In this document: positions 3,222 through 56,665 of the stretch, in pieces | How positions within the stretch are numbered: position 1 is the stretch's first letter | Layout: every line of letters begins with the position of its first letter | DNA from: a virus | Length of the DNA: 64,000 bases | Reading direction: 5' to 3' (one strand) | IMG/VR virus record: IMGVR_UViG_3300049203_000068 | Span: 3,339 to 67,338 of that record | Notes under the pieces: generated by a model | Seen by the model: only the letters and a program-made list of their open reading frames with translations | The model's database searches: none | What the model was told of the DNA's origin: nothing | Program-made: the position numbers and the translations under genes

Positions 3222-3566
3222 ATGTTCAGTGCTTATAAAATCACGAGCCAGGTGAGCCACAAGGCTTACATTGGAATAACCGCCGTTGGCGTCGACGTTC
3301 GCTGGCGCGAGCACGTTCAAGAATCAAGGCGTGGTAAAACGGGCGCACTTCATGCCGCCATCCGAAAATACGGGAGCGAAACGTTTAACGTTGTGCACAT
3401 AGCGTCGGCGGTATCACGAGAAGACCTTTTGCTCCTTGAAAAACTGTTAATTGCCCAGCACGGAACCCGAGCACCCAACGGCTACAACCTAACGATAGGC
3501 GGTGATGGCTGTCTTGGGCTCAGGATAACGAGATTCACAGCCCATCTGCATGGAAGCGCGATTTGA
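3222..3566 (+). CDS. GIY-YIG endonuclease (nuclease domain only, probably truncated)
   Basis: AYKIT...YIGIT...RWREH...E...GYNLTIGGDG motifs. Confidence 0.85.
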   Translation: MFSAYKITSQVSHKAYIGITAVGVDVRWREHVQESRRGKTGALHAAIRKYGSETFNVVHIASAVSREDLLLLEKLLIAQHGTRAPNGYNLTIGGDGCLGLRITRFTAHLHGSAI

Positions 3567-4865: not shown

Positions 4866-5066
4866 GTGACTCCTGAAGAGCTTAAACAATGGCGAGACAA
4901 GCATAGGCTTTCACAATCAATGCTGGCCAGTCGTTTGGGCGTCAGCACTAATACCGTTGCTCGCTGGGAACGTGGTGAGATGGCGTACCCGCCCTTTCTG
5001 GAACTCGCATTGCGCACCATCGCGCTCGACCTAAAGCCGAAAACAAGATCCTCAAAACGGCCTTGA
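4866..5066 (+). CDS. Xre/Cro-family HTH regulator
   Basis: LKQWRDKHRLSQSMLASRLGVSTNTVARWERGE is a typical HTH_XRE pattern. Confidence 0.9.
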   Translation: MTPEELKQWRDKHRLSQSMLASRLGVSTNTVARWERGEMAYPPFLELALRTIALDLKPKTRSSKRP

Positions 5067-5091
5067 CTCCTATATACCGCCCGTATATACT
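5063..5091 (+). promoter_or_regulatory. sigma70 promoter with overlapping palindromic operator
   Basis: TTGACT-N17-TATACT; inverted repeat TATATAC-N5-GTATATA at 5071-5089. Confidence 0.75.
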
Positions 5092-5167
5092 GACTGCCTA
5101 ATTGAAGCGGGTCGCCAAGGTGCTTAGAACACCCCGGCAACCCTGACCATAAACATCTAACTAGGAG

Positions 5168-5641
5168 ATGATCATGGCTTCCGCAAATCTTAACTCACGG
5201 CGTTCGCGCCAACAAACCTTCGACCTAACAACCATACTGGACGGAATAAGACAGCCGGAATACGTCCATCTAGTTAATGCTGATGACGGCGAACTGCATA
5301 ACGGCGACTATTTACTAGTGGATCGCCTGCGACGCCCGCGTAAAGGTGATTGGGTTGTCTGGAGCGAAGATAATCAGCACCATATCTGCCGATACGAGAG
5401 CGCAGCTAAAACCGGAGAGATCTACGCCGTTGTTGTTTCATTAATCCGCGACTTCCGCAAAATCAAACGTCCAAAATCACAAGACAGAAAGATCTCTCAG
5501 TTAAATGACGCTCTTGCTCGCCTTGAGCGTGTGCCTGAAAACGAGGCTGAACGATTCAGGCTGGAGACGGAGATCTTTAAGTTGGGGCACGTCTCAGACA
5601 TGGAAGAATGGCCGGACGTGATCGGGGTGCAGCATGAGTGA
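5168..5641 (+). CDS. degenerate S24/LexA C-terminal-like protein
   Basis: LHNGDYLLVDR...PRKGDWVV...EIYAVVV resembles the S24 fold; catalytic Ser (GxSM) is absent; AGGAG RBS. Confidence 0.55.
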   Translation: MIMASANLNSRRSRQQTFDLTTILDGIRQPEYVHLVNADDGELHNGDYLLVDRLRRPRKGDWVVWSEDNQHHICRYESAAKTGEIYAVVVSLIRDFRKIKRPKSQDRKISQLNDALARLERVPENEAERFRLETEIFKLGHVSDMEEWPDVIGVQHE

Positions 5642-5801
5642 GCAGCACCCACACAACAAGATTGGCAACGCGATCGGCCAGTGCAAGAGGCGGTTATTTG
5701 ACGCCCTTCGGCTTGGCGCGGATCTCGAACTCGCGATCAGTAACTTCCTCGCGGATCTAACTCGCGAGCTAGCCGAAATCGTGAAAGGGGAACACAGATG
5801 A
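5634..5801 (+). CDS. small hypothetical protein (55 aa, MSEQHPHNK...)
   Basis: Translated by hand; overlaps upstream stop; ATGA-coupled to next ORF. Confidence 0.55.
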   Translation: MSEQHPHNKIGNAIGQCKRRLFDALRLGADLELAISNFLADLTRELAEIVKGEHR

Positions 5802-5917
5802 TCACCTTCACGTTCAGTCTATTCGGTCGGCCCTTTACATTTTGGTTTGGCTTCCATAGAGCGATCCGAGTGCCCGGATTCGAGAAGACAGGAGTGAGAT
5901 CATGGCCACCCCGTTAA
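5798..5917 (+). CDS. small Phe-rich peptide (39 aa, MITFTFSLFGRPF...)
   Basis: Translated by hand; AAGGGG RBS; coupled start. Confidence 0.4.
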   Translation: MITFTFSLFGRPFTFWFGFHRAIRVPGFEKTGVRSWPPR

Positions 5918-6528
5918 AAGCGCTACTTCCGACAACGAACGATGCCGCGTCCACCATCTCTTTCGAGGAGCCGTACATCGTTGCATTTGCGATTGAGGGG
6001 ACGGCTCCGCTAATCTTTCACCGCTGGTCTTGCGAGGCAGTAGAAGAAAAGGCCAAAGCCGCCAAGAATAGTAAGGCTAAGAAAACCGATAATATCGAGA
6101 GTTACGTTTACCGCAACGAACTGAATCAAATCTGTCTGCCCGGCGAATACATCCGACAAAGCATGATTCATGCGGCGAAGTTCAAACAAGATCCACGCTC
6201 GCCACGCAAGTCAGCAATGGATCTTTTTAAGGCGGGTATCGTTGCGTTAACAGAACTCGCGCCGTTGAACGGCGGGACCGAAACATGGGATTACATCGAT
6301 CAGCGTCGCGTTGTGGTTCAACGGAACGCCATCTCTCGGATGCGTCCAGCGTTTGCAAGGGGATGGACCGCCGACTTTGAATTCTCGGTAATAATACCGG
6401 AGTATATCGACTCCCAGTTATTGCATGAGGTTCTAACATTGACTGGACGGTTGATAGGAACGGCTGACTGGCGGCCCTCTTACGGAAGGTTTCAAGTCAG
6501 TAAGTATGAGGTTTTACAGTTAAGGTGA
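5902..6528 (+). CDS. solo RAMP/Cas7-like RNA-binding protein
   Basis: N-terminal strand IEGTAPLIFH; LPGEYIRQSM (Cas7-like PG..xR helix); thumb-like hairpin RRVVVQRNAISRMRP; C-terminal G-rich loop GRLIGTADWRPSYGRF; AGGAG RBS. Confidence 0.8.
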   Translation: MATPLKALLPTTNDAASTISFEEPYIVAFAIEGTAPLIFHRWSCEAVEEKAKAAKNSKAKKTDNIESYVYRNELNQICLPGEYIRQSMIHAAKFKQDPRSPRKSAMDLFKAGIVALTELAPLNGGTETWDYIDQRRVVVQRNAISRMRPAFARGWTADFEFSVIIPEYIDSQLLHEVLTLTGRLIGTADWRPSYGRFQVSKYEVLQLR

Positions 6529-6627
6529 GGAACGCTGGGGTATGGTGAGGTACGGTTTGCGGAGGTTAGGTGCGCCGTGCTATGGCAAGCTGAGGATACG
6601 GCCAGTTTCGGCTGGCCGTTCTCTTTT
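6519..6627 (+). ncRNA. candidate guide RNA: phased G[G/C]N-NN pentamer array plus 3' hairpin
   Basis: 15 consecutive pentamers at 6524-6598 all begin G[G/C] (7 are GGT) with a variable last dinucleotide; lies directly after the RAMP-like gene. Confidence 0.75.
6598..6627 (+). terminator. intrinsic terminator with UUCG tetraloop
   Basis: ACGGCCAGT-TTCG-GCTGGCCGT then TCTCTTTT. Confidence 0.85.
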
Positions 6628-6751
6628 GGTGCATATTGAAGCAACTGTTCGCTGGTGAGCATCGCTCATGAGCAGAATGATCAGAACTGCGGCGCTTTTT
6701 ATAAGGCACTCGGATTGCTAAGGCTGAATGTGTGACTGGCTTTATGAAACT

Positions 6752-6859
6752 ATGAAACGAGTTTTTCTCATCCTCGCTTTGTTCTTTGTGGCCGCAGTCT
6801 TTGTCGCCGCACTCTATATTGCTTTGTGGGCCGCGTCAAAGGGCATGGGTGCGTTATGA
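6752..6859 (+). CDS. small membrane peptide (35 aa)
   Basis: MKRVFLILALFFVAAVFVAALYIALWAASKGMGAL, translated by hand. Confidence 0.45.
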   Translation: MKRVFLILALFFVAAVFVAALYIALWAASKGMGAL

Positions 6860-7579
6860 AGCGCTCAGCCCAAATCTACTGTTTATGTAATTGATCAATG
6901 TGGTCCTATCCCCACTGCTCAGCTTTGCGGAGCAGAGATACATTCCGGCATATTGACCCACAAACCATGAAGTCCCTGCACCGGAGAGACCTAGACGCAT
7001 GCTGTTGTTAAATCCAACGGCATTAGTCCCTGACGTAAACAGCGTTTCCGTCCCGTCCAGCAGGACCGTGTACTCGGTGGACGTTGTAATTATTTCTAGT
7101 AGTCGCCAAGAGGCGAGGGATAATGTTGGATTTGTACAAGTGCGTCGAGTCGTACTTCCCGCGCCCATGTACACCTTGCTGTCAGTAAACGGGTACGCAT
7201 CCGGTATGGCAATGCTGACTGTGCCAATATTCCAAAGCTGATTTCTTGAAGCAATACCTGGATCGTTTACGGCCTTGACTATCAGGAAAATATGCCCTGC
7301 GGTGAGCGCGGTGCCATCTACCCCTGACCATCCCTGTCGAACACTCGCACCTACATCAGCCACAGCCAACCCGTTGAGTTGGTTTGTTTTGAACGTTGGT
7401 CGATCAGTTCCCGCGGAGGTAAAGTTCTTCGCAGCGAACTGCCCAGTCAGCGTTCCCATTGGATCGTTGTCGGCGTAAGAGTCCCGCGAAGGTTCCCACC
7501 ATTCCCAAATACTGGAGAGTGTTGAGGGAACGGCGGGTCCGGCGGGAGCTAGCAAATACGGATTAACTAAATTGCTCAC
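6854..7579 (-). CDS. LamG/concanavalin-like tail accessory protein
   Basis: RPTFKTNQLNGLAV...LINYINSRFGL pattern; end of tail operon. Confidence 0.7.
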   Translation of the reverse strand: MSNLVNPYLLAPAGPAVPSTLSSIWEWWEPSRDSYADNDPMGTLTGQFAAKNFTSAGTDRPTFKTNQLNGLAVADVGASVRQGWSGVDGTALTAGHIFLIVKAVNDPGIASRNQLWNIGTVSIAIPDAYPFTDSKVYMGAGSTTRRTCTNPTLSLASWRLLEIITTSTEYTVLLDGTETLFTSGTNAVGFNNSMRLGLSGAGTSWFVGQYAGMYLCSAKLSSGDRTTLINYINSRFGLSAS

Positions 7580-53010: not shown

Positions 53011-53480
53011 TTCAGTACCTCGCACGGCACGCCGTATGTGTAATCTCTTTGCAGGAACGGATCGCGTTTCACGATCAGTCTTGTCCCCGTGTTGTTGCAG
53101 TGAGGGCAAACCTCCTTGCCCCGAAAGTCGTATCGGCCAATCCGTGGCATAGATTCACGTTCCGCCACTTTTATCCGTTGCCAGGCAACGCACACTTCGG
53201 AAACATCAAGCGTGAAAGTTGACGTGCGTTCGCGGCGTGCGCTTGCGATGCACTCAGCAAGTCTGTGTTCGGGTACAAGATCTTGAAGTGTGAGCGTCCA
53301 CGCTTCCACCATCAGATCGAATTCATCCTCAACCGGACGGGCTGGATTACCGGCGAAGTATCGATTCAACTGGTTCATCACCGAGGCTGCGTAACTCGGC
53401 CGCACGTTCGCGTGCCCTGACGGTTGCGGCGTTCCTTCGTTCAGAAGCTGTTTGATACGTTCCGAGTTGATTTGTTCCAT
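53007..53480 (-). CDS. putative helicase loader/inhibitor (lambda P position)
   Basis: Directly after the initiator; C-terminal CPHC...C; function inferred from synteny only. Confidence 0.5.
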   Translation of the reverse strand: MEQINSERIKQLLNEGTPQPSGHANVRPSYAASVMNQLNRYFAGNPARPVEDEFDLMVEAWTLTLQDLVPEHRLAECIASARRERTSTFTLDVSEVCVAWQRIKVAERESMPRIGRYDFRGKEVCPHCNNTGTRLIVKRDPFLQRDYTYGVPCEVLK

Positions 53481-54240
53481 TACCGTTTCCGTTTCTTCGT
53501 GCGCGACCTTCAAGTTCGCGCATTCGATTTCGCCATGTGGCGGGCCAGTCGAGTTTCTTCCCTCGCTGCCCGGGAATCCCGCGCCAGTAGTCGCAAAACT
53601 CGGCCAACGCGATATCAAGATTTACGTGCGGAGCGTCTAGCGCTGCCCATTCCCTCATGCTTGAGTTGAGACAGAAATCGTCAGGCAAACGTGTACCCCG
53701 CGAATCAGCGCGCGACCTAGTGCGCTGTGGTTCCTCTTGGGTTCTTTCCTCTAGGGTTCCTTCTTCACTGGGTTTCTTCCTTATTTCATGTGGTGAACTT
53801 GTAACTTCACTGTATGAACTTGCAACTTCATCCTGTGAACTTGCGTGTTCATGTGGTGAACTTGGCCCTTTAGCAACTTCATCCTGTGAACTTGCGAAGT
53901 GGGACATATTCTGGGGCCAAATATCCGCGACCGTGATCGAATGGTTAGGCTTGCCGCCCTTCTGATTAACCTCATCCGACACGGTGATTAACGGGATAGT
54001 CAGCGGCTTAAAAACGCGCTGAAGCGATAGTTTTGCTTTGCTCACCATCCCGCTACTCATGCCGGTCTCGCGCGCGAGAGTCGCGGTTGACTTCCAGCAC
54101 ACACCATCCGATCCCGCAGTGCGTTTCAGATGGACGTAGAGAGTTAGTTCGTATGGTGTTAGTCCGAGTAGTAGCACGATGTTTGGTATCTCGGTTCGAT
54201 ACTTTCGGGGGTCGCCCCTGTCGGTTACGCGTTGGGCCAT
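53347..54240 (-). CDS. replication initiator (lambda O-like, N-terminal wHTH)
   Basis: LYVHL...CWKSTATLARETGMS; RGTRLPDDF...FCDYW...DWPATWRN; internal iterons. Confidence 0.85.
   Translation of the reverse strand: MAQRVTDRGDPRKYRTEIPNIVLLLGLTPYELTLYVHLKRTAGSDGVCWKSTATLARETGMSSGMVSKAKLSLQRVFKPLTIPLITVSDEVNQKGGKPNHSITVADIWPQNMSHFASSQDEVAKGPSSPHEHASSQDEVASSYSEVTSSPHEIRKKPSEEGTLEERTQEEPQRTRSRADSRGTRLPDDFCLNSSMREWAALDAPHVNLDIALAEFCDYWRGIPGQRGKKLDWPATWRNRMRELEGRARRNGNGNGTNQLGTYQTASERRNAATVRARERAAELRSLGDEPVESILRR
53785..53894. repeat. replication origin iterons, 5 x TTCA-N5-TGAACTTG
   Basis: Copies start at 53785, 53806, 53827, 53848 (21-bp spacing) and 53878. Confidence 0.85.
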
Positions 54241-55549: not shown

Positions 55550-56665
55550 CTATGCAAACGCCGGCTCCTCAGTGCTGATCAGGTTTGGATCTTTCTTCGC
55601 CGCCTCTCTTGCTCTGTCAACCAAGTCATCCCATGCTGGAAACGCTCGCTTGGCGTTAGCGATTACCTGAACATTAAGATCCGTCATCTTTGCGTTAGTC
55701 ACACAACGCTTGAATACCCGATTCATATCCGAGATGGACTTATCGACTTTCTCTCGATACTCCATTGGGGTTTTGAATCCGTAGAGCATCGTTAGATAGT
55801 TTGAGTACTCAATCTTCCAATTCTTTTCGAAGCGAAAGAGTTTTTCGTCAAATAGGATTTCTTGCTCCAGTCGCGGACGCTCTTTGTTCAAAACGTATCC
55901 CGTGATCTCGGTAAGATCCGCAACGTACTCGCTCTCGACCGGCGAGGGATTCAGGATCGGAAACTCAAGTAGCATGCAGTCATCGCGGCAGACGTAAACT
56001 ATGTGCGCCTCGTTCATCCCCAGCGACTTGAGATAGTGAAACGCCTGTGATCGATGGTTAACGCCCGGCTGTTGTGATCGGTCATACTTCGCGTACATGA
56101 ACGTCGAACAACTTTTGATTTCTAAGACGATAGTCTTTAATGCGTCGTTACCAAATTGCTTTTCAAGGCTGTCAATGATCGCCAGCGAAGCGTTTTCCAG
56201 CATTTCCGGTAAGCCAAGAAAGCTTAGTTCCTTGCGCGCCTTGCGCCAGTCGGGTTGGCCGCCCGCCAGGAAGTCAAGTTTGCCCGACACTCGCAAGAGG
56301 CCCGGATACTGGTAGCTGAGTCTGGTTTGCTGTTCGACCAATATCCCGGCCCGCTTCAGTACCAATGCGCAAAGCCATTCCCAAATGTCACCCGCCTGAA
56401 ACTTTCTTAGGCTGCGATTGTTTGGCGCGTTACTCGGCTGAACGCCGCTCATCTTCAAATAACGGTCAAGCATCCCGCCGCCGATCTCCGAAGCCCACAC
56501 GTAGTCTCGCGGGACCAGCAAACGCTCTTGACGAACCACTAGCGATTGATTCCAAACGTTCGCAAAGTCCCACGATGGACCATCGTGAACCACTCGCGGC
56601 TCAGGCAGGGGCGCGGTCCACCCAAGCGCGGCCTTAAGTTTTTGCAGTAGAGCGTTAGCGATCAT
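55550..56665 (-). CDS. PD-(D/E)XK (Cas4/RecB-like) exonuclease
   Basis: WASEIG, VSGKLD, VLEIKS, Q..HY. Confidence 0.75.
   Translation of the reverse strand: MIANALLQKLKAALGWTAPLPEPRVVHDGPSWDFANVWNQSLVVRQERLLVPRDYVWASEIGGGMLDRYLKMSGVQPSNAPNNRSLRKFQAGDIWEWLCALVLKRAGILVEQQTRLSYQYPGLLRVSGKLDFLAGGQPDWRKARKELSFLGLPEMLENASLAIIDSLEKQFGNDALKTIVLEIKSCSTFMYAKYDRSQQPGVNHRSQAFHYLKSLGMNEAHIVYVCRDDCMLLEFPILNPSPVESEYVADLTEITGYVLNKERPRLEQEILFDEKLFRFEKNWKIEYSNYLTMLYGFKTPMEYREKVDKSISDMNRVFKRCVTNAKMTDLNVQVIANAKRAFPAWDDLVDRAREAAKKDPNLISTEEPAFA

Follow-up and report, generated by a model that had tools for sequence, protein, structure and literature searches.

What is a lone gene of the Cas7-like RAMP family doing in a phage, followed by a run of phased pentamers that begins at its own stop codon? 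The question is raised by a locus in the IMG/VR virus record IMGVR_UViG_3300049203_000068, a linear single-contig record of 67,338 bases with an estimated completeness of 91%, of which a stretch of 64,000 bases (the window) was analysed. An earlier note on this DNA had proposed a candidate non-CRISPR RNA-guided system and had pointed to a likeness to the VIPR (Viral Interference Programmable Repeat) systems. We conclude, with a probability of roughly 0.88, that the locus is a VIPR system of a temperate soil siphophage, in which one vipr gene and one vrRNA are co-transcribed up to an intrinsic terminator and would bring about the silencing of a competing element. Membership in VIPR is supported by sequence, by fold, by the conserved residues that bind the GGY trinucleotide and by the arrays found beside homologues, and these bear out the likeness that had been pointed to. 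The kind of system that had been proposed is supported as well; its novelty was overstated, because this kind is already in print.

VIPR has been described as a RAMP protein, Vipr, together with vrRNAs of 9-16 YNNGG repeats and a 3' tail, the NN dinucleotides of which pair with DNA, one base in three being skipped (10.64898/2026.04.26.720920). The same preprint describes these systems as mostly phage-borne, divides them into seven types with six vap genes, and reports no self-targeting; some systems have a single vrRNA, stand-alone vipr genes exist, and the natural targets reported are mostly prophages or satellites. The output described in the 2026 VIPR preprints is transcriptional repression of competing phages or satellites. 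In the structural account (10.64898/2026.04.26.720927), each repeat is bound by one Vipr protomer, and two adjacent protomers hold the flipped-out GGY. In Vipr of Escherichia phage SUSP1, G1 is read through hydrogen bonds by H17 and D177, G2 lies between R138 and W178 and is held by stacking and a salt bridge, and Y3 sits in a pocket with R179; K33, K82 and R39 touch the DNA, and mutation of R39 lowers silencing. The SUSP1 protomers are resolved from the 3' cap onwards, in the direction of the 5' end (10.64898/2026.04.26.720927), and the SUSP1 system silences a satellite recombinase (10.64898/2026.10.15.759431).

The locus in the window comprises three features:

5902..6528, plus strand: vipr, encoding the Cas7-like RAMP protein Vipr (208 aa), with ATG at 5902, TGA at 6526-6528 and an AGGAG ribosome-binding site 8-9 nt upstream
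6524..6598, plus strand: vrRNA repeat tract of 15 units of the form G[G/C]N-NN, unit 1 overlapping the vipr stop codon
6598..6628, plus strand: 3' tail with a 9-pair hairpin, a UUCG loop and a T-tract, resembling an intrinsic terminator

The translation of 5902-6528 contains the sequence motifs that had been quoted for this 208-aa protein, namely IEGTAPL, LPGEYIR and GRLIGTADWRPSYGRF. Its sole sequence match in PDB is SUSP1 Vipr (PDB 36pp), an experimentally characterised Vipr to which it is homologous, and in structure comparison the best matches are CRISPR Cas7 subunits, in agreement with the RAMP/Cas7 fold that had been put up for checking. Pfam gave no match to the protein, from a Cas7 family or any other. 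By alignment, the GGY-binding residues of SUSP1 Vipr are found again in the window protein: H17 as H40, R138 as R148 and R179 as R191, all three invariant in the comparison labelled A1, D177 as D189 (at least 90% conserved in A1) and W178 as W190, a position that is aromatic in A1. Of the residues that touch DNA, K33 and K82 correspond to K55 and K93, which are likewise invariant.

Such structural matches would also be given by a stray Cas7 of a CRISPR-Cas system, and the G-rich tract behind the gene might then be a mere 3' untranslated or terminator region; GG at every fifth base could in principle form two-tetrad quadruplexes. However, the only PDB sequence match is a Vipr, and nothing of a CRISPR-Cas system was found in the scans made. 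TRF reported no array with a period above 33 nt, and no CRISPR-like array was seen; PADLOC found no cas or other defence family in Vipr and nine further open reading frames (ORFs), six of them neighbours, a small helix-turn-helix protein at 4866-5066 being matched only by generic helix-turn-helix and control-protein models; and among 35 ORFs compared with PHROGs only 55550-56665, situated in the replication module, matched a Cas4-like exonuclease family. The statement of the earlier note that there is no cas operon or CRISPR array is in line with these scans. The ORF at 55550-56665 (371 aa) carries the PHROG label 'CRISPR/Cas system associated' and that of a Cas4-domain exonuclease (E=2.8e-10). 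Rather than belonging to a cas operon, it is likely to serve the replication module as a PD-(D/E)XK recombination nuclease.

The repeat tract starts at 6524 and its 15 pentamers read letter for letter as first quoted. The guide dinucleotides are, in order, GA, AC, GG, AT, GA, AC, TT, GA, TA, GC, GT, AT, AA, GA and TA. In the scaffold, G1 is present in all 15 units, the second base is G in ten and C in five, and the third is a pyrimidine in 12 (the exceptions are GGA twice and GCG once, and 12 had also been counted before), so that only eight units are canonical GGY; unit 1, GGTGA, includes the vipr stop codon. The number of units falls within the 9-16 published per vrRNA. In a pentamer scan the tract scores 20.5 and is the sole tract of at least 8 on both strands of the window, and 50 mononucleotide shuffles reached 10 at most and 2.55 on average. 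It is unique in the whole 67,338-base genome, where the next-best tracts score 7.5 and 6.5. At the base composition of the window, the chance of G[G/C] is about 0.14 per pentamer and about 2e-13 for 15 in succession; the earlier figure of (1/8)^15 is of matching order, though it was post hoc. We do not take a minus-strand ORF at 6492-6662 for a gene, since it overlaps the repeat tract and such antisense frames turn up repeatedly over vipr and its arrays as an artefact of frame.

A structured 3' tail follows the repeats, as had been noted in the form of a 9-bp UUCG hairpin and U-tract. The hairpin at 6598-6619 has nine pairs, six of them G-C, and a TTCG loop, and is followed by TCTCTTTT. It folds at -17.1 kcal/mol (z -3.74) and none of 200 shuffles was as stable; taken whole, the 141-nt stretch shows no unusual degree of structure (z -0.93). 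Variants of the phage are present on contigs of three soil-metagenome runs (X2, X3, X5), for which no difference is listed within 6598-6619 and a 1-nt deletion is listed at 6624.

Is such an array a property of the gene family? In IMG/VR, 454 stretches matched a peptide pattern and 395 of them encode a Vipr relative, from which the best 80 were retained; a second set consists of 74 loci from species-representative genomes. An array was counted where a same-strand tract with a score of 10 or more lay no further than 400 bp from the gene. By this rule an array is present at 76 of the 80 IMG/VR loci (upstream at 59, downstream at 53, on both sides at 36) and at 69 of the 74 others (55, 50 and 36), and same-strand arrays thus adjoin vipr in 145 of 154 related loci; several of the nine array-less loci sit on truncated contigs. 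Five-nucleotide periodicity with variable NN beside homologous genes, which the earlier note had named as a check, is accordingly found. In 148 distinct arrays with 2,912 pentamers the first base is G at 0.97, the second G at 0.86 (C 0.08) and the third a pyrimidine at 0.90, with NN near uniform, the logos for positions 1-2 being biased by ascertainment because the array scanner rewards G-G/C there. In the five closest loci analysed (L003, L005, L006, L007, L010), C reaches 0.22 at position 2. The periodicity is also seen independently of the scanner: in the 120-nt flanks, G-G autocorrelation is 0.20-0.22 at lags 5 and 10, other lags give 0.11-0.16, and control stretches 1.5 kb away give 0.09-0.10.

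A scan of genome_contigs found Vipr relatives of 35-62% identity in many phyla. Among the loci L144-L217 of this search there are Vipr proteins of 50-62% identity, in genomes or metagenome-assembled genomes labelled Planctomycetota (many Phycisphaerae), Pseudomonadota, Bacillota, Actinomycetota, Acidobacteriota, Cyanobacteriota, Patescibacteria and one Bathyarchaeia; such cross-phylum conservation is unusually high for a small phage protein, and binning errors of metagenome-assembled genomes are possible. A relative with a 65% identical Vipr (L025:3580-4170; L022 likewise) has five GGY-NN tracts downstream of the gene, parted by a conserved spacer of about 50 nt that at L025 folds as a closed stem around an internal hairpin (-22.6 kcal/mol, z -3.9). 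This spacer is probably the vrRNA tail of that subclade or a processing element. Rfam gave no match at gathering score in 20 related loci, nor around L025.

If the dinucleotides are the guide, they should differ between relatives in a way the scaffold does not. We compared 119 locus pairs with vipr DNA at least 85% identical, which are not mutually independent; the counts cover the scorable pairs. The scaffold is identical at 2979 of 3468 positions (0.86) versus 1655 of 2323 (0.71) for NN. For L022 and L025, with vipr 96.7% identical, the counts are 110/114 for the scaffold versus 41/77 for NN downstream, and 67/75 versus 25/50 upstream. Across related loci GGY is thus conserved and NN hypervariable, and judged from these comparisons the dinucleotides change faster than the scaffold. 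Faster evolution of NN, and a 5-nt periodicity on both sides of the gene at about 150 homologous loci in many phyla, are hardly what a stray Cas7 with a G-rich trailer would leave behind, and we regard that explanation as very improbable.

A less improbable, yet still quite unlikely, explanation is that the array is a decaying, non-functional vrRNA: its scaffold would have eroded, an upstream array would have been lost, and Vipr would be idle or guided in trans. The scaffold gives some reason to think so, with canonical GGY in eight of the 15 units, GC in five and a non-pyrimidine in three, and in a quick tree the nearest relatives (L003, L005, L006) have arrays on both sides where the window has the downstream one only. 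That no target was found in the collections searched (see below) would also fit. Yet G1 is intact throughout and the phase is unbroken over 75 nt, the relaxed second position is common to the close relatives, and downstream-only arrays occur at 17 of the 80 and 14 of the 74 loci, about one locus in five. If G2 is held as in SUSP1, stacking and a salt bridge would tolerate a C; that G1 is invariant and C is admitted at the second base would follow from G1 being read by hydrogen bonds.

Natural variants speak in the same direction. The contigs of X2, X3 and X5 have 38 differences in a 2-kb stretch beyond those listed, and the X3 contig differs by 50 letters and 13 gaps in 1,850 bases. Inside vipr, 12 differences are listed, nine of them at third codon positions, and a single residue is changed (R153K); vipr appears to be under strong purifying selection. 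The array has three listed differences, 6556 T>C (GGT to GGC), 6557 T>C (unit 7, TT to CT) and 6561 G>T (GCG to GCT), and two of the three retain or restore the pyrimidine. Upstream, at 5610-5680, dense substitutions and single-base indels were seen in X3 and X5 at the junction of a 157-aa and a 55-aa ORF, with vipr changes almost only synonymous.

We return to a functional VIPR locus, against which the following weigh. The DNA-touching R39 of SUSP1 corresponds to A59, which is not conserved. The tail is a plain hairpin and not the pseudoknot of SUSP1. With C at the second base in five of the 15 units and no pyrimidine in three, some units may bind Vipr poorly. Among the near-identical variants the guide is almost fixed, with one NN change in 30 positions among the listed differences. 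The ascertainment bias in the logos belongs here too. The vipr stretch, whole or partial, occurs in 20 soil or rhizosphere runs of 17 studies (one run is possibly the source), and none of these is an RNA run, hence they lend no support for expression. No ORF neighbouring vipr in the window recurs beside vipr as a vap gene in 82 related loci, where the largest genuine neighbour cluster spans 7-8 loci; the upstream 157-aa and 55-aa ORFs were tried as new vap genes and rejected, as they are not conserved beside vipr. A lack of vap does not exclude VIPR membership, because stand-alone vipr genes, and six vap genes for seven types, are published (10.64898/2026.04.26.720920). As for type II VIPR in particular, the window does not combine a Vipr of the type II clade, vap1 and vrRNA arrays with a pseudoknot tail. 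Looking for vap1 in the genome through phrog_5926 gave no match, a result that carries no weight because this search produced none anywhere.

The target searches also count on this side. We used the published rule with 1-nt skips, under which the full pattern has 30 NN bases. In the phage's own genome the best site has 19/30 versus a shuffle mean of 18.7 and maximum of 20, and self-targeting is absent there. The full 30-base pattern had no match in viral_contigs, genome_contigs or metagenome_contigs. Seeds of 8-10 units gave some matches, all of which stay at chance level when extended. In viral_contigs, units 4-11 gave nine, the best with 25/30 (L086); this site was rejected as a target, being AT-rich and without an open frame in six frames, and about three such sites are expected by chance if about 1e11 positions are assumed (the collection size is estimated). 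Units 1-8 gave 39 matches (best 23/30), 30 of them open in the NNx frame, an in-frame excess due to the codon-like composition of the seed; they too were rejected, since of eight fragments compared with PHROGs four matched unrelated families (major head, phrog_17260 twice, tail sheath) and four nothing. Units 8-15 gave 13 (best 22/30), and units 1-10 with the variant CT at unit 7 none. In metagenome_contigs, units 6-15 gave two, extending to only 22/30 and 21/30.

That no phage target was found in IMG/VR would be in keeping with a real VIPR whose guide is aimed elsewhere, at a host chromosomal site or at the VIPR machinery of another phage, for decoy, counter-defence or host gene control. Precedents have been published: decoy vrRNAs redirect Vipr to host sites, and orphan vrRNAs target vipr genes (10.64898/2026.10.15.759431). 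The guide, however, matches none of the 82 vipr loci (best 21/30), and prophages or satellites make up most of the natural targets reported in 10.64898/2026.04.26.720920, which leaves such an aim on the unlikely side. The missing target weakens none of the grounds for membership; it is the main gap in this account, in which the biological role is one that we infer.

Seen as a VIPR system that silences a competing element, the locus would work as follows, by homology with SUSP1 VIPR. Once expressed, an RNA of about 105 nt would be coated by Vipr protomers, one per pentamer, and each G-G/C-Y trinucleotide would be flipped out and gripped between two adjacent protomers. Together the 15 NN would serve as a gapped guide for a DNA site of 45 bp, pairing with it but skipping every third base, and the filament would make an R-loop triplex on double-stranded DNA and block transcription. 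Silencing is the expected output because no nuclease or accessory gene is attached, and the gene silenced would most likely belong to a phage, prophage or satellite that competes within the same soil host. The earlier note had arrived at much the same picture, a RAMP polymer on pentamer RNA that grips the unvarying three bases, offers NN as a discontinuous guide and has silencing or blocking as its output; both parts match the mechanism and the transcriptional repression described in the 2026 preprints.

How would the guide be made? The distance between the first downstream unit and the end of the stop codon was taken at 103 loci including the window: it lies at or before the stop end at 11, 1-10 nt beyond it at 33, 11-30 nt at 44, 31-100 nt at 11 and further at four. 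The downstream array thus begins within 30 nt of the stop at 88 of the 103 loci, and by these distances the fusion of gene and guide is a habit of the clade. A hairpin with a T-run by a strict rule follows at 23 of the 103. A possible start of the transcript lies upstream:

5063..5091, plus strand: sigma-70-like promoter match, 10/12 to consensus, the sole plus-strand match in 5000-7000

From here a transcript might run through 5168-5641, 5634-5801, vipr and the vrRNA; the promoter evidence is weak, because two consensus matches were seen versus a shuffle mean of 2.0. Beside this site, at 5108-5181, there is a sub-threshold Rfam match to an R1162-like plasmid antisense RNA (32.7 bits versus a gathering score of 55, E=0.0045). 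With the stop codon inside unit 1 and no promoter of its own in sight, the guide may be the 3' end of the vipr mRNA itself. On this tentative and rather doubtful idea, newly made Vipr would load in cis, the filament would set the 5' boundary of the guide and, on reaching the stop, would shut off translation. If true, the locus would be a self-limiting, one-transcript factory of ribonucleoprotein.

The carrier is a siphovirus-like temperate phage according to the PHROG scans, which found tape measure, tail proteins, major tail, major head, scaffold, portal, large terminase and endolysin, and also a 498-aa serine integrase, methyltransferases and replication proteins. The phage modules lie mostly on the minus strand, and a run of small genes on the plus strand terminates with vipr at 6528. 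G+C is 0.51-0.53 (window 0.52; G about 0.28), and a tRNA search found no tRNA genes in the phage. Matches to cultured phages are distant, the best being 59% for the major capsid (a Microcystis phage) and 33% for the portal. The plus-strand block also holds ORFs that resemble a GIY-YIG homing endonuclease (3222-3566) and a Lar-like restriction-alleviation protein (1480-1830). At about 6783-6861, just past a small hydrophobic ORF 3' of the terminator, the contigs of all four compared runs diverge or end, which points to recombination where the early-gene block meets the tail-fibre end. Far from vipr, about 3.8 copies of a 21-nt tandem repeat (53785-53864) overlap a replication-initiator-like ORF on the minus strand (53347-54240) and look like iterons of the phage origin.

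Compared with type II VIPR as described for Escherichia phage SUSP1 and a Pseudomonas fulva prophage (PDB 36pp), the window locus shares a Vipr of about 200 aa in which the GGY-binding residues are the same, a same-strand GGY-NN RNA of 9-16 units with a structured 3' tail beside the gene, and a phage-borne setting without nuclease or self-target. With the published systems of a single vrRNA it has in common one vipr, one vrRNA and no second conserved gene. VIPR arrays have also been recovered by their 5-nt entropy periodicity (10.64898/2026.10.21.760802), and non-canonical repeats have been named, namely NNNGG, YNNNG and NNNNG (10.64898/2026.04.26.720920) as well as GAC/NN, CAC/NN, WGT/NN and TGH/NN (10.64898/2026.10.21.760802). 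Like these, the window array relaxes one position of the trinucleotide; its G-S-Y, with G to C at the second base in five of the 15 units of a GGY array, is not among the patterns listed above. The Cas7 proteins of class 1 CRISPR-Cas (Csm3 of type III-A, Cas7 of type VII, Cmr4) are further away: the window lacks cas partners, a CRISPR array and a Pfam match to Cas7, its period is 5 nt with three bases flipped out, as in VIPR, instead of 6 nt with one, and its guide is fixed in the genome whereas a CRISPR guide is acquired.

The window locus is thus a VIPR of the published kind with modest variations: its one guide is joined to the stop codon, a terminator serves as the tail, a vap gene is lacking and the scaffold reads G-S-Y. 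Of these only the stop-codon fusion points to a testable new idea. It leaves the picture drawn by the 2026 preprints unchanged. For use, it offers a compact candidate for reprogrammable DNA binding and a test case for silencing that is independent of vap. For the family, it represents a minimal natural VIPR, with one 208-aa protein, one guide of about 105 nt, an ordinary terminator and no helper gene, in a soil phage that recurs across studies. The fusion of guide and stop codon, the tolerance of C at the second scaffold base and the 50-62% identity of the protein family among prophages from many bacterial phyla bear on how such systems are made and on how strict their code is.
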